Positions 4,943 through 27,220 of a stretch of DNA of 64,000 nt are shown here, piece after piece. The DNA comes from a virus, in the UHGV virus genome UHGV-0179803, one strand, 5' to 3'. Within the stretch, counting starts at the first letter, position 1. Each line of letters starts with the position of its first letter. Made by a program: the position numbers and the translations under genes. The notes beneath the pieces were generated by a model, which was given only the letters and a program-made list of their open reading frames with translations, had not been told where the DNA came from and made no database searches.

Positions 4943-5185
4943 ATGTTTAAGGTTAAGCTCGTTTTCAGATCCTTAGAAGGAGACTATTTAGAACACGAAT
5001 CTGAACACAGATTCTTTGATGATGCTTTTGAAGTTGCAAACGATATTGCCTGCGAGAACACAGGTTACGGACTGGAGTTCTGGGAAGGAGGTGCACAAAT
5101 AGATAAAAGCAAAATCTTCTATTTTTACCCGGATCCAGAATGCAGACATGTGAAATATGTGTTGTTCTTCTGTGTATTGCAATAA
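4943..5185 (+). CDS. hypothetical protein
   Basis: ORF track; RBS-like AGGAAATGCT-ATG. Confidence 0.35.
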   Translation: MFKVKLVFRSLEGDYLEHESEHRFFDDAFEVANDIACENTGYGLEFWEGGAQIDKSKIFYFYPDPECRHVKYVLFFCVLQ

Positions 5186-5482: not shown

Positions 5483-5830
5483 ATGGTGGACAAAAAAGAG
5501 AAAGCGAAAAAACGTCGTCGCAGGGGCAGACCCCTGAAAGAGGAATCAAACGCTATTCAACTTGATAAAAATCTTATTGAGATGAAAGAAGCGTTCATTG
5601 CAATGGTTCCAGAGGCACACAAAGTTCTCCGCGATATGATGAATAACCCCAAAACGAAAGAAAACATTCGTCAGGGCATAGCAACATACGTTCTGGAGAA
5701 AGCTGCTGCCATGCAGGAAGAGTACGACGAAATGTTCGGGGAAGAGGAAGAAGAATCTACTGTTGTAGATGCGACCCCAACACCGTTCTCTCCGTTTACT
5801 ACAGAGATTATCCCGATCAACGATCAGTAA
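5483..5830 (+). CDS. small protein with basic N-terminus (KKRRRRGRP) and acidic C-terminus; possible DNA-binding protein or small terminase subunit
   Basis: RBS GGAGG before ATG; composition only; lies upstream of the packaging genes. Confidence 0.4.
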   Translation: MVDKKEKAKKRRRRGRPLKEESNAIQLDKNLIEMKEAFIAMVPEAHKVLRDMMNNPKTKENIRQGIATYVLEKAAAMQEEYDEMFGEEEEESTVVDATPTPFSPFTTEIIPINDQ

Positions 5831-5899
5831 TCATTGTTGTGTAGCCTTGGAGAGAGAAGAGTGCTTGGGCGGTAAGCACTGGAAACACCGCTCAGTAGT

Positions 5900-5975
5900 G
5901 CCCCGTTAGTTCAAATGGAAGAACAGTGGCCTTCTAAGCCATAGGTTACAGGTTCGAGTCCTGTACGGGGTGCCA
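5900..5975 (+). tRNA. tRNA-Arg (anticodon TCT)
   Basis: hand-folded cloverleaf: acceptor GCCCCGT/ACGGGGT, D-stem GTTC/GAAC, anticodon loop CTTCTAA, T-arm ACAGG-TTCGAGT-CCTGT, 3' GCCA. Confidence 0.8.
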
Positions 5976-6019
5976 ACACTTTTAACCAAAACACTAATCA
6001 TTTAAAGGAACTTAGTAAT

Positions 6020-6286
6020 ATGTATACATTAAAAATCGTAGAACGTGTAATGCCAGAAGGTGAACCGGAAGATACCAACATTCCATCTAAACCGTATCTT
6101 CGTGAGTCATACTATGACATGAATAAAAACACAGATGTTATCTTCTATGAACCAAATCAGGAAGGTATCATCGCTGTGGTAATGGATGGTGAACAGAAGG
6201 TCTACATTTATGATGACACTTCTGCTTACCTGATGAATGAAAACGCTGTTACAGTACGTATCATTCATCGTGTTCAGTTCAACTAA
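6020..6286 (+). CDS. hypothetical protein
   Basis: ORF track; RBS-like AAAGGAAC; followed by hairpin terminator. Confidence 0.4.
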   Translation: MYTLKIVERVMPEGEPEDTNIPSKPYLRESYYDMNKNTDVIFYEPNQEGIIAVVMDGEQKVYIYDDTSAYLMNENAVTVRIIHRVQFN

Positions 6287-6353
6287 GGTGGTTTCAGTTC
6301 ATAATCAGTTTCATTGATACATCTCCTTTCATTGGTTTATAAGTTTTAACCCG

Positions 6354-6386
6354 CCCCGTTGACTGAAATGGTCACGGGGTTTTTTA
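6354..6386 (+). terminator. rho-independent terminator
   Basis: CCCCGT...ACGGGG hairpin followed by TTTTTTATTT. Confidence 0.5.
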
Positions 6387-6407
6387 TTTGTATGTTCTGG
6401 AGGTTTC

Positions 6408-6809
6408 GTGCCAGCAGTACTTGCATTCCTGATAAAATATAAGCGCGTGATAAAATGGACTATCGCGGCTGTCTTACTGGTTGTAGCCTGCGCTGGAGTG
6501 CACAGTTGGTACAACACCCAGATACAAAATGCCTACAACGAAGGGGTCGCTGTAACAGAGCAGAAATGGGATAAACTGATGATGCAGCAGAAGCTACAGG
6601 CCAACCAGACGAAGTTGGAACACGCTTACGAAGTCAGAGAGCTTGAGCAAAAGCTGGCTAACATGCAGAACGCCATGAACGCTCCTGGAGCTTTTGGTGG
6701 GGCTACACAACAGCAGTTCCAGTCATCTCCAGAAGGGCAACAGAACCGGATCCCAGATAAAGTGATCGATATCTACAACGAAAGTATTAACTCGGAGGTG
6801 CAGCAATGA
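6408..6809 (+). CDS. i-spanin (Rz-like inner-membrane spanin component)
   Basis: GTG start after GGAGG; N-terminal TM segment WTIAAVLLVVACAGV then a Q/E/K-rich coiled-coil region; overlaps the next gene by 4 nt. Confidence 0.55.
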   Translation: MPAVLAFLIKYKRVIKWTIAAVLLVVACAGVHSWYNTQIQNAYNEGVAVTEQKWDKLMMQQKLQANQTKLEHAYEVRELEQKLANMQNAMNAPGAFGGATQQQFQSSPEGQQNRIPDKVIDIYNESINSEVQQ

Positions 6810-7102
6810 GGTGGTTACTTGCATTAGCGATTGCACTCACGTTTTCTATGGCCCTGGTAGGTTGTAGCTCACCTAAAAGTACGCCAGTTACAGTTGCACC
6901 GCAGAAAGTTGAACAACTTGCTGTAGAGCCTCCTGCGGCAGCTATGATCCCACCAGCAATAGCTATCCCCTTGGTGAAAGGTGCACCAGATGCGGATAAC
7001 TCTGCAATTATGAGGCAGAACAATCTCTCCTGTAGCAATGATCGTGCCAAATTAATCATCTTGCAGGATTATGTAAAATCTTTATTCAATAAGGAGAATT
7101 AA
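6806..7102 (+). CDS. o-spanin (Rz1-like outer-membrane lipoprotein)
   Basis: signal peptide ending in lipobox LVGC, proline-rich mature part; immediately downstream of and overlapping the i-spanin gene. Confidence 0.6.
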   Translation: MRWLLALAIALTFSMALVGCSSPKSTPVTVAPQKVEQLAVEPPAAAMIPPAIAIPLVKGAPDADNSAIMRQNNLSCSNDRAKLIILQDYVKSLFNKEN

Positions 7103-8217
7103 TGGCTAAAATGTATGGCCCATGCTCCCGTAAACAACAAATGATTCTGGAAAATGATGCCGACTTCCTGATCATTGGTGGGGCAGCGGGTTGTTTGTCA
7201 ATGCGACATGAGGTGATGACACCTAACGGGTGGATCAGAATATCGGAATGGGATGGTCAAGATATCCTCCAGTTTGATAAAGAAACTGGTAAGGCCATGT
7301 TTATCCAGCCTGAAGAGTTTGTTAAGCTGGAATGCGACAAACTAACCAGGATTGTGCAGGATGGTATTTGTCAGGAATTATCCGACGAGCACACAGTTCT
7401 GTACGTCCCAGAAGACGGAACAGCTTACGGTACACTTAATTTCGGAGAAGTGGCTGAACAGTATGCTAACGGTGAGTTGGCAATGCGTATGCAGACCACG
7501 TTTGTGAACATGGGTGGTACTGGCCTTGGCATTTCTGACGAAGAGCTGAAAGAAAGGGCAAGATATTACAAATTCACAGATGAGTGGTATAATTGTGATC
7601 GTCGTCAGTTGTTGCAGATCTGGTATGAGATTTACCTGAACGGTAATGATCCCCATGCCTACGTTGTTCCAACGAAAGAACAGGCTGATTTCTTGCAATA
7701 CCTCGGATCATCTTTAGGTTTCAACGCACAGATCTTCTTCGAAGAAGGTTACAAAGTTGTGTTCTCTAATGAACGTGCAGGTACGATTGCTCTTAATAAC
7801 GATGCAACGTTCGAAGAGTTTGAGCCGGAAGATGGTTACAAATATTGTTTTGCTACCACAACAGGCTATTTTATCACCAGACTGGAAAACTGCATTGCAG
7901 TGACTGGTAACAGTGGTAAATCCTTTCTTCTACAGCTTCTCCCACTAAAGATGATAGATGACCCCAACACTTCTGTGGTGATGTTCCGTAGGACAACTCC
8001 ACAACTGGAAGGTGAAGGTGGTCTGTGGCCTAAAGCACTGAGTGTGTATCTGGATCTTCCTGAGTACATGAGGCCGAAATTCAGAGAGAAAGACCATAAG
8101 TTTACTTTTCCATATTATGATGCAAAGACGGGCAAATGGAATAAGAAAAGAGACGGAGCAGTAATCAAATACTGCCATATGGAATACGTCCAAGATAAGC
8201 TGAATCATCAAGGGTAA
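7102..8217 (+). CDS. terL: large terminase subunit, N-terminal (ATPase) part, carrying an in-frame intein-like insertion
   Basis: flanks of the insertion rejoin as IIGGAAG|SGKSFLL, a GxxxxGKS Walker A; the reading frame stops at 8217 where intron-like sequence begins. Confidence 0.65.
   Translation: MAKMYGPCSRKQQMILENDADFLIIGGAAGCLSMRHEVMTPNGWIRISEWDGQDILQFDKETGKAMFIQPEEFVKLECDKLTRIVQDGICQELSDEHTVLYVPEDGTAYGTLNFGEVAEQYANGELAMRMQTTFVNMGGTGLGISDEELKERARYYKFTDEWYNCDRRQLLQIWYEIYLNGNDPHAYVVPTKEQADFLQYLGSSLGFNAQIFFEEGYKVVFSNERAGTIALNNDATFEEFEPEDGYKYCFATTTGYFITRLENCIAVTGNSGKSFLLQLLPLKMIDDPNTSVVMFRRTTPQLEGEGGLWPKALSVYLDLPEYMRPKFREKDHKFTFPYYDAKTGKWNKKRDGAVIKYCHMEYVQDKLNHQG
7192..7911 (+). other. candidate intein (240 aa) inserted in the terminase P-loop
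   Basis: begins with Cys (CLSMRHEV...), ends with Asn followed by Ser (..IAVTGN|SGKS); removing it restores a canonical Walker A. Confidence 0.5.
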
Positions 8218-8742
8218 ACAAACCTGCCCTTCGTGCCTAATTCGGTGAAACTCCTTGACAAAAGGACAATACCGAGCTACGGTTAAAGGATTAGTTGAAA
8301 CCGAGTGTAACGACTATCCCCGATGAGTGTAGGGGAGTAGAATCACAAGCGATTGGTGATCCAAACGGCACGCCAAGGAGGGAAGAGCTAGTCTGTTCCA
8401 CATGGTAACATGTGGCGGGTGTCTTAGCACACCGCGTCGGAGTAGCGATCCGGCGGGACAAAAGTGGAATATACTTTAATATGTTTTGATGAGGGTTAAC
8501 TGGTAGCTCTCGTAAAACCTCCCTAATTGCGGGGAAATCTTTACTATTGACACCACCAACCTATTATGGTAACATAATATTGGCTTCGGAGAAATACCGA
8601 AGGTATGGTAATAGCGTGTTGATTTAGATAATCCGCAGCGAAGCATCCTGATAGGATGTGTGCTCAACGACTATCGCTTACGGGCGTTAGGGCCAAGCGG
8701 CTGGGGAAACCCACAGTCTTTTAAGACTGCCGAAACGGGAGG

Positions 8743-9036
8743 ATGGGAATGTGTAAAACTAAAAAATGTGTAGATTGCCAGAGAGTCCTACCTCTTGAGG
8801 ATTTCTTTTTATCTTCTAAGAGTAATGATGGGTACTCTGGTACATGCAAGGAATGCTATATGTACTACAGAAAGAATGGATCTCGTAGAAACAAGGATAT
8901 GGTTAAGAGAGATGATGCAGCAGCGTTTATTCAAGATTTGCTAGAGAAAGGTGAGCTTTTTGAATGCAAATCTTGTCATAAAAGTATGCTCGCTGACAAT
9001 TTTACACAAAACGTGATTATGGTAGGGTATATCTAG
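8743..9036 (+). CDS. Cys-rich zinc-finger-like protein, intron-encoded
   Basis: CVDCQ...GTCKEC and CKSCH motifs; RBS GGGAGGATGGGA-ATG; inside the intervening sequence. Confidence 0.4.
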   Translation: MGMCKTKKCVDCQRVLPLEDFFLSSKSNDGYSGTCKECYMYYRKNGSRRNKDMVKRDDAAAFIQDLLEKGELFECKSCHKSMLADNFTQNVIMVGYI

Positions 9037-9053
9037 TCACGGGCAGGTGTAAA

Positions 9054-9338
9054 ATGTGTGAGAAGTTCTATCAGCTTGAGAAGAAATTTCACATAACAAA
9101 AGACGAATATTTTCGTCTACTCTCAGATCAAGATTATAAATGTGCCATTTGCGGGATATCACTTGATGAGTATAGGTCGCAAGGGTACAGAGATTTCTTT
9201 AGTGTTGATCATGACCATAAGACTGGCGCTGTAAGAGGTTTGCTTTGTGATAAGTGTAACAGAGCTTTAGGTTTTTTCCAGGAGGATGAGGAAACTCTTC
9301 TTAAAGCGGCAGAGTATTTACACACTCATAAGATATAG
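9054..9338 (+). CDS. HNH / endonuclease VII-family homing-endonuclease-like protein
   Basis: motif CAICG...SVDHDHKTGAVRGLLCDKCNRALG matches the EndoVII/HNH signature (DHDH-x-TG-x-RG-x-LC-xx-CN). Confidence 0.7.
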   Translation: MCEKFYQLEKKFHITKDEYFRLLSDQDYKCAICGISLDEYRSQGYRDFFSVDHDHKTGAVRGLLCDKCNRALGFFQEDEETLLKAAEYLHTHKI

Positions 9339-9454
9339 TCTGGTCTGCATGGAGACATGCAGCTGCCACATGGTGGCGGGGCAAGAGTAGCGACCTTGCC
9401 CGAACACAAACGACACAGTTCGATTGGGAGCAAATCGACTACCTGATTTCTCGT

Positions 9455-10534
9455 ATGAGGTCGAAATCGAAATACTCTTCACGGATGGTGATCAGCTGTA
9501 ACCCGGATTCTGAACACTATTTAGCCAAACTGGTTCGTTGGTGGCTTGACGACGAGGGCTACCCAGATGAAAGCAAGTGTGGCGTTAAGCGCTATTTCAT
9601 CCGTAGGGATGGGGAATTTATCTTCGGCGATACGCCAGAAGAGTTGATCGAGAAGTATACCTATGTTAACGGCAAAGGTGTTGAGATAATCCCAAAACCA
9701 CTCTCTATCGCTTTTATCGGTGCAACAATCCACGATAACCCCATCTGCTTGCGTGATAACCCAGAATATCTTGCATTCCTGGAAGGTCTGCCAGAGCTGG
9801 AAAAAGCACAACTCCTCTACGGTAACTGGTTCGCTAAGCCTGAAGGTGCAAACTATTTCAGTCGCACATTCTTGAAAGATGCGGATCATGTCCCCCTCGG
9901 AGCAGTTTCTGTAAGAGCATGGGATAAAGCTGGTACAGAACGTACCTCTGGCAACAAATTCCCCGACTATACAGCCAGTATCAAGGTCAGTAAGGATAGT
10001 GATGGTTACTACTACATCTCCGGTGACTATTGCCCTGAAAACGTAGATGATGGCAGATATTCTACGGGCTTGCACGGTAAGTTCTGCAAGAAAGCTGGGG
10101 AACGTGATGTTATTATCAAGAAACAGGCAGAGTTTGATGGTGAGGACTGCGTAATTGTCTTCTCTGTGGACCCCGGTCAGGCAGGTAAGAGTGAGTTTCT
10201 TACTTCATCTCGTAAACTTCTTGCCGGAGGGTTCAGGGTAGAAGAAGACCCAATGCCGTCTAACAAATCAAAACTCACCCGTTTCTCCCCGTTTGCCAAC
10301 CTTGCCCAACAAGGGATGGTGCGGCTTGTCCGGTCAAGTTTCGACCCGGATACACTGGAAGCATTTTTGACAGAGCTGGAGAAATTTAACGGCGAACGGT
10401 CAACCTTTAGCCGTAAAGATGATTGGGCTGACTCCATTGCTTCTGCAATTAACTACCTTGAAAAAGAGGAAGTTGCTATGCCATGTGTTATTCCGAAGAT
10501 TGTTTCACCCTCTATGTATAAGAGGATGATTTAA
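9455..10534 (+). CDS. terL: large terminase subunit, C-terminal part (nuclease domain exon)
   Basis: frame is open from 9332; contains ISCNPDSEHY, RAWDKAGT and DDWADSIASA acidic motifs expected of a terminase RNase-H-like nuclease domain; true 5' end depends on the splice junction. Confidence 0.65.
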   Translation: MRSKSKYSSRMVISCNPDSEHYLAKLVRWWLDDEGYPDESKCGVKRYFIRRDGEFIFGDTPEELIEKYTYVNGKGVEIIPKPLSIAFIGATIHDNPICLRDNPEYLAFLEGLPELEKAQLLYGNWFAKPEGANYFSRTFLKDADHVPLGAVSVRAWDKAGTERTSGNKFPDYTASIKVSKDSDGYYYISGDYCPENVDDGRYSTGLHGKFCKKAGERDVIIKKQAEFDGEDCVIVFSVDPGQAGKSEFLTSSRKLLAGGFRVEEDPMPSNKSKLTRFSPFANLAQQGMVRLVRSSFDPDTLEAFLTELEKFNGERSTFSRKDDWADSIASAINYLEKEEVAMPCVIPKIVSPSMYKRMI

Positions 10535-15245: not shown

Positions 15246-16670
15246 GTGTTCTATCCAGTTGAATATGATCCGAAATTACGGATTTTCAATAACCAGGTAG
15301 ACTTCTACGAATTTCTGGCAGAAGCTAATCCAGAAATCAACGTAGGTCTGTCTGCGTTATTACCACCAACCGAATTTGTTGTTGGTGAAAAACACTTCCC
15401 ATGCAGAACGATTGTGGATTTCTTCGAACAGATTGCAGAACAGACTGGATTGCCAATCGACACGGAAGCCTCCACTATCCGTATGGGTGTAATTCTTTTG
15501 TTCTTCACAGAAGACTTGGGTGAGAGCATCTTAACACTTCAAAGCGGTGATGCTCATATTACGCTTACCCCTTCCGTGTTTAAAGAGGTAGATGCTGCTT
15601 CCAAGGTTTCAGTGGCAAAAGGTCATCTGTGGTATCCTGAAGAAATGCCCAGCAAGGTTACCATAAATGATGAGCAATGTGATGTTGTTTATGCAGAGGG
15701 TACTCAAACTTTCACCATTGGGTGGCCTAAGAAACGTTCTCAGGTTGTAAATCCAGGTCTGACTTCCGAACCGATTGTAAGAGAAGAGTGGGAAGAGAGT
15801 CCTAATACGCTACCAAATGAAAGAGCACTTAAAGAAGACGGTACTTTAAAAATGGGAACGGGTGTAAAAGGCACTTATGCTACAGTTACCAGTGATGGGG
15901 TAATTGAATTAGCACTCATTCCAATGATACCTGGTCGTAAAGTATTAGGTCCTGCTGGCGATGATGGTATTTTTACTAAAACAGAAAAAGGCGACGTTTC
16001 TTGTTTCTTTGGTGTGACTAGTTTGAAATATCCGTTAAAAGATGTAATTGGTTTATATGATTCCATTACTTTAGATGTAATTAGTGATGGTACACCTATA
16101 CAAAAAATGGACTTACAATTACATAATGGCGGTTGGTATGACAAAAACGGAGAAATGTTAGAGGGTACTTACCTTGACGAATATACTATTCAAGAAGCCA
16201 CTCGTGTATCATTCTATGCAGAAAGGGGTAGAGAACATAAGTTTGTTTTAAGTGCTACCTCTGGAGAAAACACGGAGAGCATAGAAGTTACCGTTATTGA
16301 TGAGTACGTAGAACCGGATCCTGAACCAGAGCTGGAACCAGAGCCGGACCCGGATACAGGAGTTGACCCAGGACCTGATCCAGAATCATTACCTGAGCCA
16401 GGACCCACTGTGGGAGACAACGGTGAAACTACAGGGCCTGCTGAATCACAGGGTGCGGAGCCAGCTATAATGACAATGAGTATGGAAGAAGCTGCTCCCG
16501 ATAGCGTCGATGCCATCCTACAGCAGGCTGCTGTTTTAGAAGACGAAGCAGACAAGAGTGGCTCTAAAGTGGCTCTTGAAGCATTCGCCAAACAATACGG
16601 TGTGAGCTTAGCTCGAAATAAAACTTTCGCCAATATGATGAAAGATTTCGAAGCAGCTCTTAGAGCATAA
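15246..16670 (+). CDS. head-associated protein with acidic Pro-Glu-Asp-rich linker
   Basis: GTG start after AAAGGAG; PEPELEPEPDPD...PGPDPESLPEPGP segment; position after capsid gene. Confidence 0.4.
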   Translation: MFYPVEYDPKLRIFNNQVDFYEFLAEANPEINVGLSALLPPTEFVVGEKHFPCRTIVDFFEQIAEQTGLPIDTEASTIRMGVILLFFTEDLGESILTLQSGDAHITLTPSVFKEVDAASKVSVAKGHLWYPEEMPSKVTINDEQCDVVYAEGTQTFTIGWPKKRSQVVNPGLTSEPIVREEWEESPNTLPNERALKEDGTLKMGTGVKGTYATVTSDGVIELALIPMIPGRKVLGPAGDDGIFTKTEKGDVSCFFGVTSLKYPLKDVIGLYDSITLDVISDGTPIQKMDLQLHNGGWYDKNGEMLEGTYLDEYTIQEATRVSFYAERGREHKFVLSATSGENTESIEVTVIDEYVEPDPEPELEPEPDPDTGVDPGPDPESLPEPGPTVGDNGETTGPAESQGAEPAIMTMSMEEAAPDSVDAILQQAAVLEDEADKSGSKVALEAFAKQYGVSLARNKTFANMMKDFEAALRA

Positions 16671-18434: not shown

Positions 18435-18982
18435 TGGAAGAGTTTGAAAAAGTTTTTAGCGATCTGGAGGAAATTGTTGCTAAGATGGCAAGAGTTGCCA
18501 CAGGCAGACGTGTCATCATGGGTGATCAGGAGATCATTCCGAAACCAGATGGTGAGTTTATCCTTCTTGAAACGATGGGTATTCAGCCACACATCTGGGA
18601 AGACAATGAATTCCAGACCGAAGAGGGTGTTGCTTACGTTACCCACAACTACACAGTTACCTATATGTTAACTGCCTATCGTGGTAAAGCGTATGCAGCA
18701 TTGTCCAGATTATTGCAAGCAATAAACCTTCCGATGTTTTACGATAAATTCTTTCCTGATGGTTCTATGTACGCCTATTCTTCGGCCTCTACAATCTCAC
18801 CTCTGCGAGTACCGATGAATAAGCAAGCATATGAGGTAAGAGCCACGGTAATGATGACGTTTAACGTCAGGTTTATTGAGACTGACATGGCAGCGTTCGA
18901 AGATCTTCAGGGCATCGAAGCTGAGCTTCATGTTCTCCACCCTGCTGATGACAGTCAAGCGGTTATCGACCCTGGTCAGTAA
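18434..18982 (+). CDS. head-tail joining/tail completion protein (hypothetical)
   Basis: ORF track; position-based. Confidence 0.35.
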   Translation: MEEFEKVFSDLEEIVAKMARVATGRRVIMGDQEIIPKPDGEFILLETMGIQPHIWEDNEFQTEEGVAYVTHNYTVTYMLTAYRGKAYAALSRLLQAINLPMFYDKFFPDGSMYAYSSASTISPLRVPMNKQAYEVRATVMMTFNVRFIETDMAAFEDLQGIEAELHVLHPADDSQAVIDPGQ

Positions 18983-19054
18983 TCGTTCTCCATGTAGCGT
19001 AATGATTATGCTACTTGTTAATATCCTGTGCACAAGATATTGAAGAGGAAACAA

Positions 19055-20443
19055 ATGCCTTACAATGATAAAGTTGTCGATGTGCAAGTAAACCTGGGTA
19101 CACAGCCGATTGACACAGTAGGCTTCGAAACTCCCCTGTTTATTGCCATCCACAATAATTTTACTGAACGCGCTCGCGTTTACGCTGAACTCGATCAGTT
19201 AGTTGACGATGGTTTTGCACCAGGTAGTGCTGCTCACACCTTCGCTTCTAACGCTTTCGGTGGTGAGTTTCCGCCACAATACATTGTCATTGGTCGTCAG
19301 GCTGCAACAGAAACTGTTGTTGACTTTGTTGGTGGTGTATTCCCAGCTGAATCTGAAGTTATCGTAAACGTAGCAATCCCTAATTATGATCGTGCCGTAG
19401 TCATCCAAGTTGGTGGTGGTACTGCTGCTACAGCAATTGCTGAGGCTCTGGCTACAGCGATCACTGAAGATGAAACCTTGTCAGGTGCTGGCGTAACTGC
19501 TACCGCTGGGGAAGGTAAAGTTACCGTTACAGGGGCTACCGTAGGCTACAGTGCTGGCGATTTCAAAATCGAAAATAAATCTGATGAAACTCCGCAGACG
19601 ATTATCGATGAAATCAATGACGCGAACAACAACTGGTATTTCCTGTGTGCCGAAGATCACAGCACTACTGCTATCACAGCTCTTGCAAAATGGGCACAAG
19701 CTAACTACAAACTCCATGTTTACTCCACTGCTGATGAAGATGCAATGGGCGTAGAAGGGGGTATCGGTTACGCTCTCAAACTGCTCCAGATTGATAATAC
19801 CATAGGTATGTGGGATCCGCGTGCTAACATGGACTTCCCAGAAGGTGGTATCATCGGTGCAATGGCATCCAATGACCCGTCATATGGTGATAGCTTACAC
19901 CTGAAAAAAATGCCAGGCATTACTCCTCCGAACATGAGTATCGGACAGAGAATGGCATTGTGGGATAATAACCTGAACTTCTACAGAATGATCAATGGTG
20001 TTGGTTGCTTCTGGGAAGGTAAATGCGCTTCAGGCCAATATGCTGACGTAATCAGATTCTCCCACTGGATCAAATTCCGTTCCGAAGAATCTATGTTTGG
20101 CTACATGCATCGCAGATCCAATATAGGCATGAGCATGAAAATGTCTGATGATGACCTGCCTGTTATTAAATCTGTTCTGATGAACGACCCGATCAACGTT
20201 GGTATCACCAACGGTGCTATCCTGACCGGATATGACGAAGAAAATAGTGTGTTCTATGATCCGATTATCACTGTTCCGAAACGTGCTAACATCCCTACCA
20301 ATCAGCTGGCTGCTCGCACTTTGGAAGGTGTTAAAGTAGAACTGGTCTATAACAACGCTCTGCACTTTGTTAAAATCCGTATCAATGTCCTGCTGGACAA
20401 AACGGGTACTACCGGCACAAGTGCTCAGGCAATGACTGCATAA
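19055..20443 (+). CDS. tail sheath protein (putative)
   Basis: 463 aa from ATG after GAAGAGGAAACAA; directly followed by a ~157-aa gene, the usual sheath-tube pair; biased codon usage. Confidence 0.5.
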   Translation: MPYNDKVVDVQVNLGTQPIDTVGFETPLFIAIHNNFTERARVYAELDQLVDDGFAPGSAAHTFASNAFGGEFPPQYIVIGRQAATETVVDFVGGVFPAESEVIVNVAIPNYDRAVVIQVGGGTAATAIAEALATAITEDETLSGAGVTATAGEGKVTVTGATVGYSAGDFKIENKSDETPQTIIDEINDANNNWYFLCAEDHSTTAITALAKWAQANYKLHVYSTADEDAMGVEGGIGYALKLLQIDNTIGMWDPRANMDFPEGGIIGAMASNDPSYGDSLHLKKMPGITPPNMSIGQRMALWDNNLNFYRMINGVGCFWEGKCASGQYADVIRFSHWIKFRSEESMFGYMHRRSNIGMSMKMSDDDLPVIKSVLMNDPINVGITNGAILTGYDEENSVFYDPIITVPKRANIPTNQLAARTLEGVKVELVYNNALHFVKIRINVLLDKTGTTGTSAQAMTA

Positions 20444-20454
20444 CAGGAGGGTAA

Positions 20455-20928
20455 ATGGTCACAGATATTTTAACACCTTATGCATATGACCCGAAAAAGG
20501 TTCGTCTCTACTTGATGACTCAGAGAGTATTCGGTTTTGCAGCGGATACAAAAATTGTTGTTTCTCGTAACGAGGACAATATTTACCCGCATATGGGCGT
20601 GGATGGTGAACTAAGTGCAGCTTTATCCCGTAACCAATCTGGTGTAATGACTGTATCTTTACAGAACACCTCCGCATGGAACGCCTACCTGTCAGACTGG
20701 CAGAAACAAGCATCTATCACAGGTCTTGTATTCTTCCCAGTGCTGCTGGAAGGTAGCCAGGGGCCAGGCATCAGCACTATTGGCTGGATTCAGAAACAAC
20801 CTGATCTGACTTATGGTACTGAAGTTGCCCAACTTGACTGGGAAATCGGCGTACTGGATTGCTGGTTAAACAAAGACAACATCGAATCTGCAATGATGGG
20901 ACTTGCAGGTTTAACTGGTATCATTTAA
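20455..20928 (+). CDS. tail tube protein (putative)
   Basis: 157 aa after RBS AGGAGGG; followed by strong terminator. Confidence 0.45.
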   Translation: MVTDILTPYAYDPKKVRLYLMTQRVFGFAADTKIVVSRNEDNIYPHMGVDGELSAALSRNQSGVMTVSLQNTSAWNAYLSDWQKQASITGLVFFPVLLEGSQGPGISTIGWIQKQPDLTYGTEVAQLDWEIGVLDCWLNKDNIESAMMGLAGLTGII

Positions 20929-20934
20929 TGCTAC

Positions 20935-20963
20935 AGGCCACCTTCGGGTGGCCTTTCTTGTTT
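20935..20963 (+). terminator. rho-independent terminator (UUCG tetraloop)
   Basis: AGGCCACCTTCGGGTGGCCT hairpin then TTTCTTGTTT. Confidence 0.6.
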
Positions 20964-20970
20964 ATAAGGT

Positions 20971-21000
20971 TTGACAAAAGTTGGTGTTTTGTGGTATAGT
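20971..21000 (+). promoter_or_regulatory. sigma70-like promoter with extended -10
   Basis: TTGACA-18 nt-TATAGT preceded by TGTGG. Confidence 0.5.
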
Positions 21001-21033
21001 TCCTTTGTGTTTAAAATTACTAGGAGTTTACAG

Positions 21034-22560
21034 ATGGCTGGAAAATGTTACACTAAAAAAGAATGGCTAACAGCTGTCTTCAAAGAAAACCCTGAGTTTG
21101 AAGAAATGTACGATTACAGTCAAACTGAGTACAAAGGCAGTAGAGAAAAAGTGAGCATTATTTGCAAAAAACATGGTGCGTTTTCTGTAGAAGCAAATGC
21201 TCATAGAAAAGGAGAGGGATGCAAAGAATGCTACCTTGAGCGTAAACGTGGAAACAAGGAAGAATTCGTTGAAAAAGCTAAAGAAGTGCATGGGGTGCGT
21301 TACAACTACTCTAAGGTTGTGTATAAAGACAGAGTGACAAAAGTAGATATCATCTGCCCTGATCACGGAGTGTTCTCACAAAAACCTAGCAAACATTTGA
21401 GAGGACAGGGCTGCCCCCATTGTGCTAACATGGCTCGTGGTAGAAAAAGAAGAAACTCTTTTGAGGAAGTAGTGGAACAGGCCAAAGAGGTCCACAAAGA
21501 TAAATACGTTTACAAAGGTATGTTTTACGATGAAAGGAAGAAAGGTATTCTTAATATTAAATGTTCAAGGTGTGGATCAGAGTTCCAACAACCTGTGAAA
21601 GACCATGTACACCAAAATCATGGGTGTAGACATTGTGCAAAACTAACCTCAAGAGTGGAAGAATCTGTCTTTGACTTCATAAAAACTATCTGCCCAGACG
21701 CGGAGCAGTCTGATCGCACTATCCTGGATGATGGCAAAGAGTTAGATATCTATGTCCCATCAAAGCGTGTGGCGATTGAAGTCAATGGTATCTTCTGGCA
21801 TGGAGACAATCATAAGCCTAGGGATTATCATTACAAAAAATGGTTAGCCTGTAAAGAGAAAGGTATTCGTCTGATCCAGATCACAGATTATGATTGGAAT
21901 AACAACCAAAAAGTGTTTAGCCAGTTGCTGGCTCATGCCTTGGGGTGCAATAGTGAGCGTAAAGTGAATGCTAGGGAATGCGAAGTGGTGCATCTCAAAT
22001 CAACAGAGTGCAAAGAGTTTTACAACGCTTACCACCCACAAGGCCATTCTCCTAACCCAATTAATCTGGCCTTGAAAACGAAAGAAGGGGAAATTGTAGC
22101 GATCATGAGCTTTGGTTATGGTAAAACTACAAGGGGTCAGGCCAGAGCTAACGGTACGACTAAAGCAACATGGGAGTTATCAAGATTTGCATCAAGCTGC
22201 TCTGTTCGTGGTGGGGCATCTCGACTGTTTAAAACGTTCATCAGAGAGAACAATCCAGAAGAGGTTAGCTCATTCAGCATGAATGACTACTTCGCTGGTG
22301 GGGTTTACGAAGTGTTAGGATTTGTTGCGGAGACGTATGGCAAACCAGACTACAGAGTGTTCCATCCGTTCAGCGGGTTACGCCACAAATCATACTGGCA
22401 ACGCCGTAATATCCCGAAACGTTTGAAAGAACTGGGTAAAGAAGAATTAAACTTTGACCCAGAAATTGATCAGCGTACAGAGCGGGAGATAGAGGATTTG
22501 GTTGGTGCTATCCGGTTGTGGGACAGCGGCAAGATCAAATGGGTATGGAAAGCTGAGTAA
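21034..22560 (+). CDS. free-standing putative endonuclease: triple zinc-ribbon N-terminus plus Vsr/DUF559-like nuclease domain
   Basis: three repeats of C-x2-HG-x-F...G-x-GC-x2-C; C-terminal DIYVPSKRVAIEVNGIFWHGDNH resembles the Vsr-type D..P...AI.V.G.FWHG motif; own promoter and RBS AGGAG. Confidence 0.5.
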   Translation: MAGKCYTKKEWLTAVFKENPEFEEMYDYSQTEYKGSREKVSIICKKHGAFSVEANAHRKGEGCKECYLERKRGNKEEFVEKAKEVHGVRYNYSKVVYKDRVTKVDIICPDHGVFSQKPSKHLRGQGCPHCANMARGRKRRNSFEEVVEQAKEVHKDKYVYKGMFYDERKKGILNIKCSRCGSEFQQPVKDHVHQNHGCRHCAKLTSRVEESVFDFIKTICPDAEQSDRTILDDGKELDIYVPSKRVAIEVNGIFWHGDNHKPRDYHYKKWLACKEKGIRLIQITDYDWNNNQKVFSQLLAHALGCNSERKVNARECEVVHLKSTECKEFYNAYHPQGHSPNPINLALKTKEGEIVAIMSFGYGKTTRGQARANGTTKATWELSRFASSCSVRGGASRLFKTFIRENNPEEVSSFSMNDYFAGGVYEVLGFVAETYGKPDYRVFHPFSGLRHKSYWQRRNIPKRLKELGKEELNFDPEIDQRTEREIEDLVGAIRLWDSGKIKWVWKAE

Positions 22561-22564
22561 TCAT

Positions 22565-22588
22565 AAGCCTCTTCGGAGGCTTTTCTGT
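22565..22588 (+). terminator. rho-independent terminator (UUCG tetraloop)
   Basis: AGCCTCTTCGGAGGCT hairpin then TTTCTG. Confidence 0.5.
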
Positions 22589-22593
22589 CTACA

Positions 22594-22622
22594 TTGACAA
22601 AAAGTGAGTACAATGTTATAAT
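22594..22622 (+). promoter_or_regulatory. consensus sigma70 promoter
   Basis: TTGACA-17 nt-TATAAT, spacer ends in TGT. Confidence 0.6.
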
Positions 22623-22701
22623 AAATCTATATAATAACGTGGTGGTGACAGTTGTCTAAAATCGCATATCTGAATGCTTTTCATAAGAGGATAATAAAGA
22701 A

Positions 22702-23844
22702 ATGACAGATATCTACAACGATAAAGTTGTACACGCCGAGGTGGCTCTTGGTAAAGACGCTGCATCGGGTGGCAACAGGACTTCTCTGGATAAAGAGGCT
22801 TTACGAAGTTATGTTCTTGCTGCTAGAGAGGCGGCTAACAAAGCTAAAGTGGCTTCAGAAGAGGCAGCTTTATCACGAGACGCTTCCCAAGCAAACGCTA
22901 ACAATGCATCGATTTCCGCAACCAATGCACAAGATAGTGCAGATCGTGCAGAATCAGCAGCTAACGCAGCCGAATTATCTTCCTCTTCTGCTGAGGGCAG
23001 TGCAACTGCCGCTGCCTTATCTGCAACGCAAGCATCCGCTGATGCATCTACAGCAACACAAGCAAAAGATGACGCTGTTGCAGCCTCTGGTGTGGCAACC
23101 CAACAAGCAGCAAATGCTGAATCATCTGCCGATACATCCGCTGAAAGTGCAGATGCAGCAGCAGCAAGTGCCGCTTCTGCTCAAGGATCTGCAACTTCTG
23201 CTTCCGGTTCTGCCACGACTGCAACAGAGAAAGCAACAGCAGCGAACAAATCTGCCACCGCAGCAAAAACGTCAGAGACTAATGCCAAAACCTCTGAAAC
23301 CAACGCCGCAAGCTCAGCTAGTGCAGCATCCGTTTCAGAAAGCAATGCTTCTGATTCTGCAACAGCAGCAGAGTCTTCAGCGACTTCTGCAAGATCGAGT
23401 GCTTCAAGTGCATCGACAAGCGCCAGCACAGCCACTACTAAAGCGAACGAAGCTGCAACCAGCGCCACTGATGCTGCTAACAGTGCCAAATCCGCTTCTA
23501 ATAGTGCATCAACTGCGACAACAAAAGCAGGTGAAGCAAGTAAGTCAGCAACAGATGCTGCAAATTCAGCAAGCTCTGCTTCAGCAAGCAAAGATGCTGC
23601 TGCTGCCTCAGCCAGCGCCGCAGCTACCAGCGAAACCAAAGCAAAAGCCAGTGAAACTGCTGCTGCAAGCTCTGCTTCTTCGGCAGCCACCAAAGCATCC
23701 GAGGCTGCAACATCTGCCACTAACGCAGCAAAAAGTGCATCAGACGCTGCAAATAGTGTGGAGGAGGTAAAAGCACAGTTCGAACAGCGCCTTACTGAAC
23801 TTGAGGCAAGAATTGCTGCTCTTGAGGGTGCTAAAAATAATTGA
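22702..23844 (+). CDS. Ala/Ser/Thr-rich repeat protein resembling the stalk region of side-tail-fiber (Stf-like) proteins, ending in a coiled coil
   Basis: repeats such as TAAKTSETNAKTSETNAASSASAAS and ATTKANEAATSATDAANSAKSAS resemble the repeat region of lambda-type side tail fibers; C-terminal QFEQRLTELEARIAALEG heptad segment; no receptor-binding C-terminal domain. Confidence 0.55.
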   Translation: MTDIYNDKVVHAEVALGKDAASGGNRTSLDKEALRSYVLAAREAANKAKVASEEAALSRDASQANANNASISATNAQDSADRAESAANAAELSSSSAEGSATAAALSATQASADASTATQAKDDAVAASGVATQQAANAESSADTSAESADAAAASAASAQGSATSASGSATTATEKATAANKSATAAKTSETNAKTSETNAASSASAASVSESNASDSATAAESSATSARSSASSASTSASTATTKANEAATSATDAANSAKSASNSASTATTKAGEASKSATDAANSASSASASKDAAAASASAAATSETKAKASETAAASSASSAATKASEAATSATNAAKSASDAANSVEEVKAQFEQRLTELEARIAALEGAKNN

Positions 23845-24011
23845 CACAAAAACCGCTTGATGTATTATGCCTCCAACAAACAAGTTGGGGGCTTTTGCTA
23901 TGAAACACTTTGAAGAGACTTAGGGTTGCATCTTTTGGATTATTGCAACACTGATGATCGGTCTGTTCTTTGTTGTACCTGGTGTGGAGGCTGCACGGAC
24001 TATGCACCTTG

Positions 24012-24040
24012 TTGACAAAAAGAAAGTACAATGCTATAAT
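24012..24040 (+). promoter_or_regulatory. consensus sigma70 promoter
   Basis: TTGACAAAAAGAAAGTACAATGCTATAAT, near-identical to the element at 22594. Confidence 0.55.
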
Positions 24041-24086
24041 AAACCTATGCGATAACGCATAACAACTAACTTAAGGGTAACGAGAA

Positions 24087-24551
24087 ATGCCAAACTTTAG
24101 ACCTACTACAGAAATAGATTTAGTCGGACATAACTTCATCATAACCCATTGGTCCCCGATGGTGTGTATGCATAACCTGCCAAAGATTGGTAGGATTATC
24201 GCTGTGCCGATGGGAGCTATTGGTGGTGAATTACTTAATGGTGGGAGAAATTTAGCAGAAGTGCTCCCAACAGCCTTAGTCTATCTGTTCGAACAACTTG
24301 ATGACCAATCTATTGACGAACTGTTTAAAATCCTCTTCAGCGATGTTACAGTAGACGGTGTGGACAAGGTGGATCCTGATAAACTCTTTACTGGCAATCT
24401 GTTTGCAATGCTTAAACTGGCTGGTAAGGTGCTGGAGGTAAATTACGGATCTTTTTTCACGCAAGAAGGTTTAGACGGCCTGATGTCGATGTTGCAGGGA
24501 CTGCAAATGGCGAATCAGATCAACAGTCTGGACCAGGAAACTCAGGAATAA
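24087..24551 (+). CDS. tail assembly chaperone (putative)
   Basis: 154-aa acidic protein directly upstream of the tape measure gene; position-based. Confidence 0.4.
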   Translation: MPNFRPTTEIDLVGHNFIITHWSPMVCMHNLPKIGRIIAVPMGAIGGELLNGGRNLAEVLPTALVYLFEQLDDQSIDELFKILFSDVTVDGVDKVDPDKLFTGNLFAMLKLAGKVLEVNYGSFFTQEGLDGLMSMLQGLQMANQINSLDQETQE

Positions 24552-24865: not shown

Positions 24866-27220
24866 ATGGCTGGTAACAAAGTGGTTGCCACAACCACAAA
24901 CCGAATTACATTTGAGATTGACAACAATAGCTACAAAAAAGCTATTGAAAGAATTAAAGGATTAGGCAGAGAGTTTACAAAGCTGGGCGATTCTTTGGGA
25001 AAGGGGAATCCTCTGAAAGCCTGGCAAGCATCAATGGAGAAGACTGGTCAGATTGTTCAGAGGGTACAGAATAAACAGTTGCAACAGCAACGCCGTATGC
25101 ATCAGGAAGCTGTATCCCAGGCCAAACGTGAAGCTGCTGTACGATCTGCGATAGAAAAACGTGAGAATGCCAGAAGGAAACAGGTTGTCGGTCAGATGAC
25201 TGCCAAAGATCCTGAATTGGTGAGAATGCGTAAATTCTATCAGGAGCAATCTAAGTTGGCTAAGAAAAGTGGTGGCTTAGGTGGTTCCTACTTCTCCAAC
25301 AAACCAGTCTCACCTCGTGCTCTGTCCAGAGCAAATACCTTCAGATATATCCCAGGTAACCCCAACATGGGGGGTGTAGCTTCCAACCCTGCACTTGTTC
25401 GTGCCCAGACTGCCGCTATGAATAGATGGCATAAGCAGAATGGTGGTACAGGAGGCTCAGGAACGCCAAGGCGCAACAATGTAGGCATGGATAGGCTAAC
25501 ACACCTTACCAATATGTCAACGCGTCTGACAGCTCGTTATGGGGCTAATTTCAGGGATATGCTTGGCGGCTACCGTCAGGTTGAACAGCAATACGCAAAA
25601 GGGTTGATAGGTAAGTCAACTTTCAACGCCCAGATCGCTGCAATGCAGAAGGGGTTTGCTAATGCTGCTGCCGGAACCATGTCTTTGAGCACTGCCTTCA
25701 ATAAACTAAGAACAACAGTCATGGATCTGACCAAAGCATACACTGCATTCTCTGCAATTGTTAGTGTTAACAGGTCTGGTCACATGATGGAAGGTGCGAG
25801 TGCTGCTCTCACTAACGTTATGGGTGATCCTACGAAAGCTAACGCGGAAGTTGCATTCGTGCAAAGTGAGGCTATGAGATTAGGCTTCGACCTGAAATCA
25901 GGTCTGCAAGGTTACGCTCAAATGGCAGTAAACGCCAAAAACCAAATGACAGGGCAGGAAGTCCGTGATCTGTTCTCTGCTTATTCGCAATATGCTGCGT
26001 CTTATGGTGCTGATGAAGTGAAATACCAACGTGGTATTATGGCAATCCAGCAAATGCTCGGCAAAGGGCAGGTAATGTCGGAGGAACTAAAACAACAATT
26101 GGCAGAGGCAATGCCGGGTGCTTACGAGCCGTTCATTAAAGCAACAAAAGAGGCTTTCAACCTGTCCGAGCTGACTATGGAACAGTTCATGGACATGATG
26201 CAGAAAGGCCAGGTCAAAACAGCCAAAGTAATGAAATATGTTGCTAAGTACATGAACGAAGCATCTGCTGCTGGTTATGAACGTATGCAGAAATCTAACG
26301 TTCTGGCTGAAAACCGTTTGAAAACTTTCATCGAATTAACCAAACAGAAACTGTTCACTACATGGTCAGATGAACTTACCGAGTTCTATTACACCCTGAT
26401 CCGTACAGGTGAAACATTCACCCCTATGATTATGCAAGCTGGTGAGTTTGTATCTGGCTTTATCCAAGGTCTGAACGACATTGTTGGTGAATTGAATAAT
26501 ACAATTGTTAGTATTCGTATCTGGTGGTTGCAAGTCAGAGATCACTTTGGTCTGCTGAAAAAAGAAGTCAAAGATACAAGCAACACTGTTGATGAAACCT
26601 TCAGCAAAGCTAAGTGGGTGGGCTATGCATTCTCCATCTTAGTTGTTGTTAGCGCTGTTGGTAGATTGTTAAAAATCATCAAAGCTGTTGCCGCAACCTT
26701 AGGTATGATTAAAGCTGCGGGTGGTATAGCAGGTGCTATAGGTGGTGCCGCAGGTGGCGCAGCTGCCGGAGGAGCAGCGGCAGGAGGTGCAGCAGCCATG
26801 GCTAAGAAAGGATTGTTTGCAAGGATACTTGGTGGCCTGTGGAAATACAAAGGACCATTAGCTATTGGCTACATGGGGTATGAAGGTGCCAACCTGATTG
26901 ACGAATGGATGCAAAACTACCATCAGGAAACTGACGTGACTAAGCATCCGCAGTGGCTTGTTGATGGTGTTAATGGTATTTCATCTTTCTTTGGCTTGGA
27001 CTACCGCATGGATAATCCAATTACCTACAGAGCTAATCCAACCCCAAGTACACCTTTGGATCCGTTCCAATCTTTCAACGTTCCTCCGATTCCTCTGGAA
27101 ATTGGTGAGGGTAAAATTACAATTGAGTTTGACGCTGCTCAGTTCGAAGAAATGCTGGATGCAAGGTTTGAATGGGAAAACTGGAAAGATATTAACTTGT
27201 TTGCAAGTCCTAATAACTAA
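24866..27220 (+). CDS. tail tape measure protein
   Basis: 784 aa; helical N-terminal region, hydrophobic segments and Gly/Ala-rich stretch GGAAGGAAAGGAAAGGAAA; follows the chaperone genes. Confidence 0.7.
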   Translation: MAGNKVVATTTNRITFEIDNNSYKKAIERIKGLGREFTKLGDSLGKGNPLKAWQASMEKTGQIVQRVQNKQLQQQRRMHQEAVSQAKREAAVRSAIEKRENARRKQVVGQMTAKDPELVRMRKFYQEQSKLAKKSGGLGGSYFSNKPVSPRALSRANTFRYIPGNPNMGGVASNPALVRAQTAAMNRWHKQNGGTGGSGTPRRNNVGMDRLTHLTNMSTRLTARYGANFRDMLGGYRQVEQQYAKGLIGKSTFNAQIAAMQKGFANAAAGTMSLSTAFNKLRTTVMDLTKAYTAFSAIVSVNRSGHMMEGASAALTNVMGDPTKANAEVAFVQSEAMRLGFDLKSGLQGYAQMAVNAKNQMTGQEVRDLFSAYSQYAASYGADEVKYQRGIMAIQQMLGKGQVMSEELKQQLAEAMPGAYEPFIKATKEAFNLSELTMEQFMDMMQKGQVKTAKVMKYVAKYMNEASAAGYERMQKSNVLAENRLKTFIELTKQKLFTTWSDELTEFYYTLIRTGETFTPMIMQAGEFVSGFIQGLNDIVGELNNTIVSIRIWWLQVRDHFGLLKKEVKDTSNTVDETFSKAKWVGYAFSILVVVSAVGRLLKIIKAVAATLGMIKAAGGIAGAIGGAAGGAAAGGAAAGGAAAMAKKGLFARILGGLWKYKGPLAIGYMGYEGANLIDEWMQNYHQETDVTKHPQWLVDGVNGISSFFGLDYRMDNPITYRANPTPSTPLDPFQSFNVPPIPLEIGEGKITIEFDAAQFEEMLDARFEWENWKDINLFASPNN

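Follow-up and report, generated by a model that had tools for sequence, protein, structure and literature searches.

A tip-less, Stf-like stalk gene of an rV5-like metagenomic phage as a probable decaying derivative of a mobile accessory fiber module

Introduction

In the fibritin (wac) of phage T4, a short N-terminal attachment region leads into a long trimeric coiled coil that is divided into segments and ends in a small oligomerisation element at the C-terminus. In Ur-lambda, residues 102-393 of the side tail fiber protein Stf likewise form a trimeric coiled coil, and laboratory lambda carries a frameshift in stf (PMC12617516). The short tail fiber of the Pectobacterium phage phiTE, resolved by cryo-electron microscopy, begins with an N-terminal joint, continues as a long coiled coil, and ends in a globular tip (PMC11972413). 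Here we examine an open reading frame (ORF) in a 64-kb stretch of the viral genome UHGV-0179803, referred to throughout as the window, that encodes a 380-amino-acid (aa) protein made up largely of Ala/Ser/Thr-rich repeats. An initial annotation had described this protein as a stalk-only, Stf-like insertion in the tail module, and had suggested that it might be a tail decoration or whisker, a fiber decoy, or a remnant of fiber-module recombination. We propose that the ORF is probably a dispensable, decaying deletion derivative of a mobile Stf-like accessory fiber module.

The stalk of the protein resembles that of lambda Stf in its Ala/Ser/Thr heptads and in the motifs KTSETNAK and STATTKASEAATSA, and loss of the distal part of such a fiber has a precedent in laboratory lambda. 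Unlike lambda Stf, however, the protein has an N-terminal anchor without similarity to the gpStfN collar domain, which binds the siphovirus tail tip, and its host virion is that of an rV5-like myovirus. It further departs from the Stf family in that its tip is deleted, its C-terminus is borrowed, and no tfa-like gene lies downstream. On two defining features, the absent tip and the unrelated N-terminal domain, it falls outside that family. The phiTE short tail fiber is laid out like the parental fiber of our ORF, and phiTE represents a related myovirus group, phiTE-named Pfam families matching the tube, adaptor, and decoration proteins of the window; its short tail fiber differs in gene location, and the anchor has no similarity to it.

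Among solved structures, the N-terminal coiled coil of T5 pb1 (PDB 8hqz) is the sole protein with sequence similarity to ours (E = 9e-4, query residues 133-355 against chain residues 9-231) and has the same type of Ala/Ser helical repeat, although the match is weak and driven by composition, and pb1, with at least 1,076 aa, has a distal receptor-binding region and an intramolecular chaperone and does not have the anchor in common. The outline of the tip-less product is that of T4 fibritin, with the difference that its C-terminal element is a foreign Leu/Ile helix of ~25 residues and not a foldon; no sequence similarity to fibritin surfaced in general Pfam, PHROG, and PDB searches. As a genetic unit, the locus is like phage morons and endonuclease hot spots in placing a promoter, a gene, and a terminator between conserved genes, at a site that hosts interchangeable endonucleases. 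Unlike morons, it carries a fragment of a structural fiber module instead of a host-fitness gene, and its promoter is duplicated from a resident one.

Results

A stalk without a tip

The protein is composed of 33.4% Ala, 20.0% Ser, and 10.0% Thr and carries the repeat motifs quoted in the initial annotation, namely TSETNAK twice (aa 190-202) and ATTKANEAATSATDAANSAKSAS (aa 243-265). Ala recurs sharply every 3.5 residues, and from residue ~40 to residue 380 the heptads keep to a single, unbroken register. One core position of the heptads is Ala in 92% of cases and the other is Ala or hydrophobic in 77%, while the positions flanking the core are mostly Ser and Thr/Asp/Glu. An AlphaFold2 monomer model places a helix at residues 31-379 and leaves residues 1-30 unstructured; this is a low-confidence model (predicted local distance difference test 65.7, predicted template modelling score 0.25) that folds the rod back on itself, and it served for secondary structure only. 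Given a coiled-coil rise of ~0.148 nm per residue, the predicted product is an anchor of ~30 residues followed by ~350 residues of continuous coiled coil, that is, a rod of ~50 nm with no receptor-binding end. By analogy with Stf, the coiled coil is presumably trimeric. Homology and structure prediction, which the initial annotation had named as a check, thus return an Stf-type stalk and a long helix, with the reservation that the model is a poor one.

The claim that the protein has no receptor-binding domain also stands. It ends 25 residues past the stalk, a Pfam search returned no match, and PHROG tail-fiber families match in the repeat region only. Its resemblance to the repeat region of side tail fibers is likewise borne out by 45-60% identity to the stalks of longer fibers, measured by unmasked local BLAST because BLASTP with composition correction produced no usable alignment with one of them, P0005 (L and P codes denote loci and proteins of relatives). 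All protein matches are longer (about 450-660 aa) and have the stalk alone in common before continuing into tip domains; no full-length homolog was found among 5.8 billion clustered proteins. The gene for P0005 lies directly after gpJ, the stf position, in an E. coli lambdoid prophage, and P0005 has both the stalk-tip junction and the tip in common with the parental full-length fibers described below. In this prophage (L094/L095 8001-9650, beside abgT), the P0005 gene is followed by a 56-aa, all-helical ORF resembling a coiled coil.

Derivation from a three-gene fiber module

In other phages, the anchor and stalk belong to a module of three genes, which encode a fiber (anchor, Ala/Ser/Thr stalk, and globular tip), a protein of 94-99 aa, and a small membrane protein. 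The tip, of ~250 aa with GGTG repeats, is present in P0014 and in the fibers of L009 and L089 and is deleted in the window ORF. In L003 and L009, phages of 136-137 kb whose capsid protein is 61% identical to that of the window, the fiber gene adjoins the capsid gene and is followed by the 94-99-aa gene (ending in ..LLNAKVDQRLAELEARVAALE..), the membrane-protein gene (..AARTMHLVDEY..), a kinase-like gene, and an adaptor gene. The membrane-protein gene is intact in L003 and L009 (79-95 aa) and persists as an open 51-aa version in L089. The tail module is not where the gene originated: in other phages, the fiber module adjoins the major capsid gene.

Comparison by blastn resolves the window ORF into a mosaic of donor-type blocks (Table 1). 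The assignment of its 5' untranslated region (UTR) relies on the first of these blocks and on visual alignment to the region 5' of the L009 fiber gene. The last block, which also matches L003 11869-12001 (85%) and from 23774 onward matches L089 from 7388 onward, reveals the nature of the C-terminus. Because the last ~25 codons of the ORF and the terminator behind them match the gene downstream of the donor fiber, the C-terminus is that of the neighbouring gene, fused in frame. The short C-terminal coiled coil noted at the outset is thus present but is not a native fiber end. Compared with L089, L003, and L009, the window allele is without the tip and ~70 codons of the 94-aa gene. Of the features of the rV5-like module it retains anchor and stalk, while its 94-99-aa and membrane-protein genes are no longer intact.

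Table 1. Features at and around the stalk ORF, in window coordinates. Donor blocks are blastn matches, given with the donor coordinates and the percentage for each match.
Feature	Position	Strand	Remarks
Sheath gene	19028-20443		
Tube gene	20455-20928		
Terminator-like hairpin after tube gene	20935-20954	+	TTCG loop; left edge of the tube-chaperone hot spot
Homing-endonuclease gene, HNH/DUF723-type	21034-22560	+	508 aa; PHROG 559 HNH endonuclease, E 1.5e-103; PF05265
Terminator hairpin	22565-22582	+	AAGCCTCTTCGGAGGCTT+TTCTG, TTCG loop, T-rich tail; native terminator-promoter unit 5' of the chaperone gene
Promoter copy 1, within 46-bp segment	22594-22639	+	-35 at 22594-22599, TG-extended -10 at 22617-22622; predicted to drive the stalk ORF
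5' UTR imported with the fiber module	22640-22701	+	Crippled donor-promoter copy (GTGACA..GTTGTCTAAAAT) and ribosome-binding site
Donor block	22651-22717		L003 9944-10017, 78%; region 5' of fiber gene and first codons
Stalk ORF	22702-23844	+	380 aa
N-terminal anchor, aa 1 to ~36	22702-22810	+	Non-helical; conserved YNDKVVHA; presumed virion-attachment peptide
Donor block	22714-22963		L009 5563-5821, 71%; anchor
Ala/Ser/Thr heptad coiled-coil stalk, aa ~31-355	22792-23766	+	Mosaic of L009-type stalk blocks
Donor block	22936-23129		L009 6022-6215, 88.7%; stalk block
Donor block	23146-23510		L009 8983-9347, 84%; stalk block
Donor block	23506-23738		L009 9427-9680, 77%; stalk block
C-terminal ~25 codons and stop	23767-23844	+	..QFEQRLTELEARIAALEGAKNN and stop; from 3' end of donor 94-99-aa gene, fused in frame and heptad register
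Donor block	23768-23903		L009 10753-10884, 82%; 3' end of small downstream gene and terminator
Donor-derived terminator hairpin	23869-23892	+	GCCTCCAACAAACAAGTTGGGGGC then TTTT; follows the ORF and is conserved behind the small gene in L003, L009, L089, and L098
Third-gene remnant (membrane protein, ..AARTMHLVD..)	23900-24011	+	Nonsense codon after 7 codons (ATGAAACACTTTGAAGAGACTTAG, 23900-23923); cut at right junction
Promoter copy 2 of 46-bp segment	24012-24057	+	Predicted to drive the chaperone and tape measure genes
Chaperone gene	24087-24551		
Gene for 81-aa protein			Between chaperone and tape measure genes
Tape measure gene	24866-27220		

The anchor defines a rare protein family. An exhaustive HMMER search of 1.84 billion representatives recovered four proteins, and a single further anchor locus came from scans of IMG/VR and JGI contigs; a JGI metagenome scan with the anchor alignment and a word-indexed protein search with the N-terminal 63 aa yielded no relatives and no candidates, respectively. 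Its carriers are the tipped fibers P0014 (533 aa) and that of L009 (1,667 aa), P0121 from L089, and the short proteins P0123 and P0124. Over residues 1-90, identity to the window protein ranges from 56% (P0014) to 86% (P0121), and residues 1-91 gave no PDB match even at E<=10, phiTE entries included. The family thus appears confined to a handful of rV5-like metagenomic phages. A tblastn search of 50,697 phage records with the ORF, the parental tip, and the 94-aa protein gave no matches, the low-complexity filter masking the ORF, and cultured phages apparently lack the fiber module. Neither the ORF nor its anchor has a paralog among the other proteins of the window, including the large fiber genes at 31.7-55 kb, so the ORF is not a duplicate of a resident fiber gene.

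Several observations concern the donor phages and their capsid-adjacent site. The L009 fiber (5491-10494) is nearly all Ala/Ser heptad coiled coil, nominally >200 nm long, and carries a non-repeat insert of ~110 aa near residues 610-720 (..YYQSQTSLATIASHYPEQLPGALVALYINS..); it is exceptionally long for a 136 kb myovirus. At the place that the module occupies in L003 and L009, the window (15246-16670) encodes a 474-aa protein with acidic Pro/Glu-rich repeats (PHROG 3259) whose C-terminus matches a 'minor head protein inhibitor of protease'. We considered this protein as a relative of P0014 and rejected it as unrelated; JES2013 and Ro1 carry yet other genes there. The 56-aa ORF behind P0005 is akin in kind to the 94-aa partner of the module, with no detectable sequence similarity, and small helical proteins encoded 3' of such fibers may be a recurring class of partner.

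Insertion by duplication of a resident promoter

With rV5-like E. coli phages (Vequintavirus, e.g. JES2013), the window has 90% identity in the capsid protein. At the nucleotide level it shows little similarity to cultured phages, with about 73% in the sheath gene. The ORF lies between the tube and chaperone genes, as the initial annotation had it, except that a homing-endonuclease gene intervenes on the tube side. In L005 and L007, which have the same endonuclease allele, this site is empty: the alignment with the window breaks at 22639 and resumes at 24012, and the single promoter segment of these relatives (5925-5970) aligns to both 46-bp segments of the window. The inserted cassette measures 1,418 bp and has a copy of the duplicated 46-bp target on either side.

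The TTCG-loop terminator and the perfect promoter that had been read from the sequence are both present. The promoter at 22594-22622 (TTGACA-17-TATAAT) agrees with the consensus at 12 of 12 positions and has a TG 5' of its -10 element. Its extended 29-nucleotide motif occurs twice in the 64 kb (22594 and 24012), where shuffled sequences lead us to expect no copies, and these sites are two of just four perfect consensus promoters in the whole window. The promoter does not, however, belong to the ORF in origin. As the one promoter of L005 and L007 matches both window copies, that of the ORF is a copy of the resident chaperone-gene promoter. The terminator hairpin also precedes the promoter in L005, L007, L089, and L098. 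In the cultured phages Ro1 and JES2013, the chaperone gene directly follows the tube gene, and the JES2013 spacer contains a terminator and a sigma-70-like promoter, which indicates that the terminator-promoter unit is native to the tube-chaperone site.

L089 retains the full module at this same site. Its nucleotide identity to the window is 93.6% over sheath and tube and 90.7% over chaperone and tape measure, and between these lie, in order, the terminator, the promoter, a full tipped fiber, the 94-aa gene, the 51-aa remnant of the membrane-protein gene, promoter copy 2, and the chaperone gene. The right junction (CACCTTGTTGAC/AAAAAG), at which the donor Leu-Val-Asp codons overlap the -35 hexamer (..ATGCACCTTGTTGAC/AAAAAG..), is common to the window, L089, and L098. 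Because both outer junctions are common to the window and L089, we attribute them to a single ancestral insertion. These junctions are better explained by two illegitimate joins that overlap over a 46-bp target than by integration of a T4-PeSL-like mini-circle via promoter homology, a candidate that we consider less likely because the right junction lies in the coding sequence of the third gene and offers TTGAC-type microhomology only.

The prediction of an independently transcribable insertion is upheld by the absence of the cassette from close relatives. The unit also has what would be expected of a moron, with a predicted promoter and terminator, conserved adjacent genes, and a precise empty site in L005/L007. 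This layout, together with a host-type consensus promoter inside a structural operon and a product that has kept its anchor and lost its tip, could be taken to suggest that the protein acts inside the cell, either as a dominant-negative decoy of the fiber docking sites or chaperones of co-infecting phages or in some other moron-type early function. We regard such a role as very improbable. The promoter merely duplicates that of the chaperone gene, so its strength says nothing of this gene, Pfam and PHROG searches found no similarity to defence or anti-defence families, and the fate of the gene in L098, described next, shows that it is dispensable; the idea is purely speculative.

Decay and absence in relatives

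L098 is the closest relative found, with an identical chaperone protein and flanks of 98.9% and 98.2% nucleotide identity. It has the same cassette ends as the window, the same ..LEGAKNN end before the stop codon, and the same nonsense-bearing remnant of the third gene. Missing from it are 996 bp (332 codons) between the TTGCTGCT octamers found in the window at 22817-22824 and 23813-23820, and a further 10 nucleotides that include the ATG, which leaves it without a start. Since it keeps the window-type ends and remnant, L098 descends from a window-type allele and is a pseudogene. Erosion of the locus may thus have proceeded through microhomology deletions. L004-L007, on contigs of 118-141 kb, have no cassette and no anchor-encoding sequence anywhere, and L008, Ro1, and JES2013 are also without the cassette. 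A single site therefore presents a full module (L089), a tip-less in-frame fusion (the window), a start-less scar (L098), and an empty state (L005/L007).

Of the roles first suggested, a remnant of fiber-module recombination is the one that agrees with this series, given the full version in L089 and the further-decayed version in L098. A decoration, whisker, or decoy role gained no supporting evidence, and the start-less scar argues that the gene is dispensable. The ORF has further hallmarks of a gene remnant in being shortened relative to its orthologs and further degraded or lost in its closest relatives; its frame is nonetheless whole, and ribosome-binding site, promoter, and terminator are all present. 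Between the window and L089, the ratio of nonsynonymous to synonymous substitution rates (dN/dS) is 0.39 for the anchor (87 codons), compared with 0.011 for the tube, 0.015 for the 81-aa protein, 0.045 for the tape measure, 0.051 for the chaperone, and 0.152 for the sheath. For the stalk blocks it is 0.14-0.15 against L009.

Two other short alleles carry the anchor. In P0123 (137 aa) and P0124 (243 aa), which arose independently, the anchor is joined in frame to the C-terminal helix that also ends the window ORF. P0123 is encoded on a 934-bp contig, where a short upstream ORF was taken as the 3' end of a capsid gene, and P0124 at the capsid-adjacent locus of an L003-type phage. The full fiber of L089 is called as ORFs of 158 and 655 aa owing to a frameshift in an A8 run (GAAGCAAAAAAAATGCC, ~5062-5069), which may be real and inactivating, may reflect a slippage-prone sequence, or may stem from an error of sequencing or assembly.

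A number of points weigh against reading the ORF as a gene in decay. The ORF is fully intact, and all of its joins keep both the frame and the heptad register. It has normal codon usage, a strong predicted promoter, and a ribosome-binding site graded good (AAGAGG, 22685-22690, 11 nucleotides before the ATG). The exact protein is found on four contigs of ~140 kb, and dN/dS is below 1 in anchor and stalk alike. Recombination between in-phase repeats could preserve frame and register within the stalk, but it does not cover the final fusion, and the in-frame fusions P0123 and P0124 could mean that tip-less fibers are selected and not merely tolerated. Finally, the cassette-free relatives may never have received the insert or may have excised it precisely via the 46-bp repeats.

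Much of this evidence would equally suit a functional 'bald' fiber or whisker, which trimerises through the borrowed Leu/Ile helix, docks on the virion by its anchor, and serves as a spacer, stabiliser, or docking-site plug without binding a receptor. The tip-less state would then be selected, for instance because it silences an accessory receptor specificity while keeping assembly. Such a fiber would explain why frame and register are kept at every junction, including that with the foreign helix, why expression signals and codon usage remain in order, and why anchor-helix fusions recur independently, in the case of P0124 in a different phage lineage; the architecture also resembles that of T4 fibritin. 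We nevertheless consider it unlikely. The nearest relative has destroyed the very same allele, losing its ATG and 332 codons, the cassette is missing from four close relatives and from every cultured relative examined, and the co-transferred partner genes have been deleted or pseudogenised. That all three of three fusion events are in frame has a chance of ~4%, which in so small a sample is suggestive rather than decisive, and the P0121 allele of L089 is itself frameshifted. A decaying derivative of the module remains the reading that we prefer.

The reading frame is that of a real gene

Coding statistics single out the frame of the ORF, at +0.445 bits per codon compared with at most 0.17 in the others. 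Its synonymous-codon score of 0.169 lies within the range of 0.05-0.42 across 13 window genes. The long ORFs in other frames that had been dismissed as spurious do exist (22727-23770 on the plus strand, 347 aa; 23181-23849 on the minus strand, 222 aa), and they are indeed spurious, as gene-like codon usage occurs only in the 22702-23844 frame. The stalk-coding region contains no tandem repeats, and no exact direct repeat of at least 12 nucleotides occurs in 22550-24100. Its repetitiveness is therefore one of degenerate heptads at the protein level and not of DNA repeats, which makes assembly collapse unlikely.

These results bear on the concern that the ORF is an artefact, produced by collapse of a repetitive full-length fiber gene during assembly or by a chance frame in low-complexity DNA. 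The window comes from a short-read metagenome assembly, in which it is part of a contig of ~139.5 kb (ENA ERZ1034815 NODE_8), and the low-complexity region has long ORFs in three frames. On the other side, the junction that removed the tip does not lie between repeats, the identical protein recurs on four contigs in the 50-200 kb range, the independent assembly L098 carries a derivative with the same fusion end and nonsense remnant, and coding statistics and homologs both point to one frame only. An artefact is accordingly the least probable explanation that we considered, and we hold it to be highly improbable. Judged by its sequence, the ORF is a real gene that is probably transcribed, presumably from promoter copy 1. 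Exact-sequence cluster look-ups did not find the 380-aa protein in the index searched.

Two further signals overlap the ORF. A promoter-like site at 23841-23868 (TTGACA-16-TATTAT, 11 of 12 consensus positions) overlaps its stop codon directly 5' of the terminator hairpin; it is kept in L089 and L098, its -10 part is visible in L009, and it may be the promoter of the third gene of the module. On the minus strand, antisense to stalk-coding DNA, the Rfam family isrG, a Salmonella small RNA, matches at 23225-23389 and 23507-23713. We rejected a structured RNA here, the scores of 28 and 22 bits being below the gathering score of 100; the matches probably reflect overlap of the isrG family with Stf-like prophage fiber sequence rather than an RNA gene at this locus.

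The tube-chaperone spacer as a hot spot

The spacer that received the cassette (20929-24086; L003 16605-20304) is a hot spot for homing endonucleases, and at least five states of occupancy can be told apart among relatives. It is empty in Ro1, JES2013, and L008; L005 and L007 carry the window-type 508-aa HNH/DUF723 gene (86-92% aa identity); and unrelated alleles are found in L004 (635 aa) and L006 (550 aa), both with about 32% aa identity, and in L098 (582 aa, 73% nucleotide identity). L003 has two tandem endonuclease genes, and L089 a 61-aa ORF instead. Homology of the window with L004, L006, and L098, which have another endonuclease, and with L089, which has none, ends at 20977, and a TTGACA-18-TATAGT site at 20971-21000 precedes the endonuclease gene of the window.

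The native terminator and host-type sigma-70 promoter in the middle of the structural block (22565-22622 and 24012-24040; L092/JES2013 18575-18680) are conserved from the window to JES2013. One would not expect such a unit within a late operon, and its presence suggests that transcription of the chaperone and tape-measure genes is controlled separately. Mobile elements also occur elsewhere in these genomes. In L005, L006, and L007, an insert of ~850 bp at ~8018-8862 splits the tape measure gene at codon 412 (corresponding to window ~26104); in L007 it contains a 196-aa ORF resembling an HNH-type endonuclease, a sign that the insert may be an intron or a free-standing homing element. The tape measure of the window is intact, at 784 aa. 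In JES2013 (L092 6493-8923), an endonuclease VII gene separates two annotated pieces of the terminase large subunit, a further mobile-endonuclease insertion.

Discussion

In regard to how the locus arose, the derivation of the ORF and its junctions, the promoter duplication, the heptad periodicity of the product, and the absence or decay of the gene in relatives are well supported, and they are most readily joined in the following sequence of events. In an ancestor of the window lineage, the fiber module would have entered, by illegitimate recombination, the spacer with the terminator and promoter that separates the tube gene from the chaperone gene. The insertion would have duplicated 46 bp of the resident promoter, such that one copy came to drive the insert and the other continued to drive the chaperone gene. 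A deletion of ~1 kb would then have removed the tip along with the first ~70 codons of the 94-aa gene, so that the stalk now reads in frame into the Leu/Ile helix at the C-terminus of that gene's product. The gene would now be on its way out, being start-less and further deleted in L098 and with other close relatives free of the cassette. We favour the view that the window copy still yields a transcript and a protein, a tip-less coiled-coil rod whose anchor would presumably attach to the virion, and we infer that this rod has no adaptive function.

Alternatively, tip-less alleles may be selected. Three independent natural alleles, the window ORF, P0123, and P0124, cap an anchor or stalk with the Leu/Ile helix, in the case checked, that of the window ORF, with the heptad register kept at the fusion. 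This helix could act as a portable trimerisation clamp. We think this doubtful. If it is true, the clamp perhaps reflects a chaperone-like interaction of the 94-aa protein with the stalk, and a phage could silence an accessory receptor-binding fiber through a deletion and still display a bald rod, competent for assembly, on its particle. The fiber module would then also count as a previously undescribed accessory module that moves between two intergenic hot spots of rV5-like phages, one behind the capsid gene and the other between the tube and chaperone genes.

Under the reading that we prefer, that of a module in decay, the single gene matters little, because fiber truncation, modular exchange, and moron-like insertions are already well known. 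What the locus offers is an unusually complete natural series at one site, in which an accessory fiber enters an endonuclease hot spot with duplication of a promoter and is subsequently eroded. It also shows that uncultured relatives of rV5-type coliphages possess an Stf-like accessory fiber module, one that none of the cultured members examined was found to carry. Our findings are also relevant to host-range prediction and to annotation, in that ORFs of this kind should not be called receptor-binding tail fibers.

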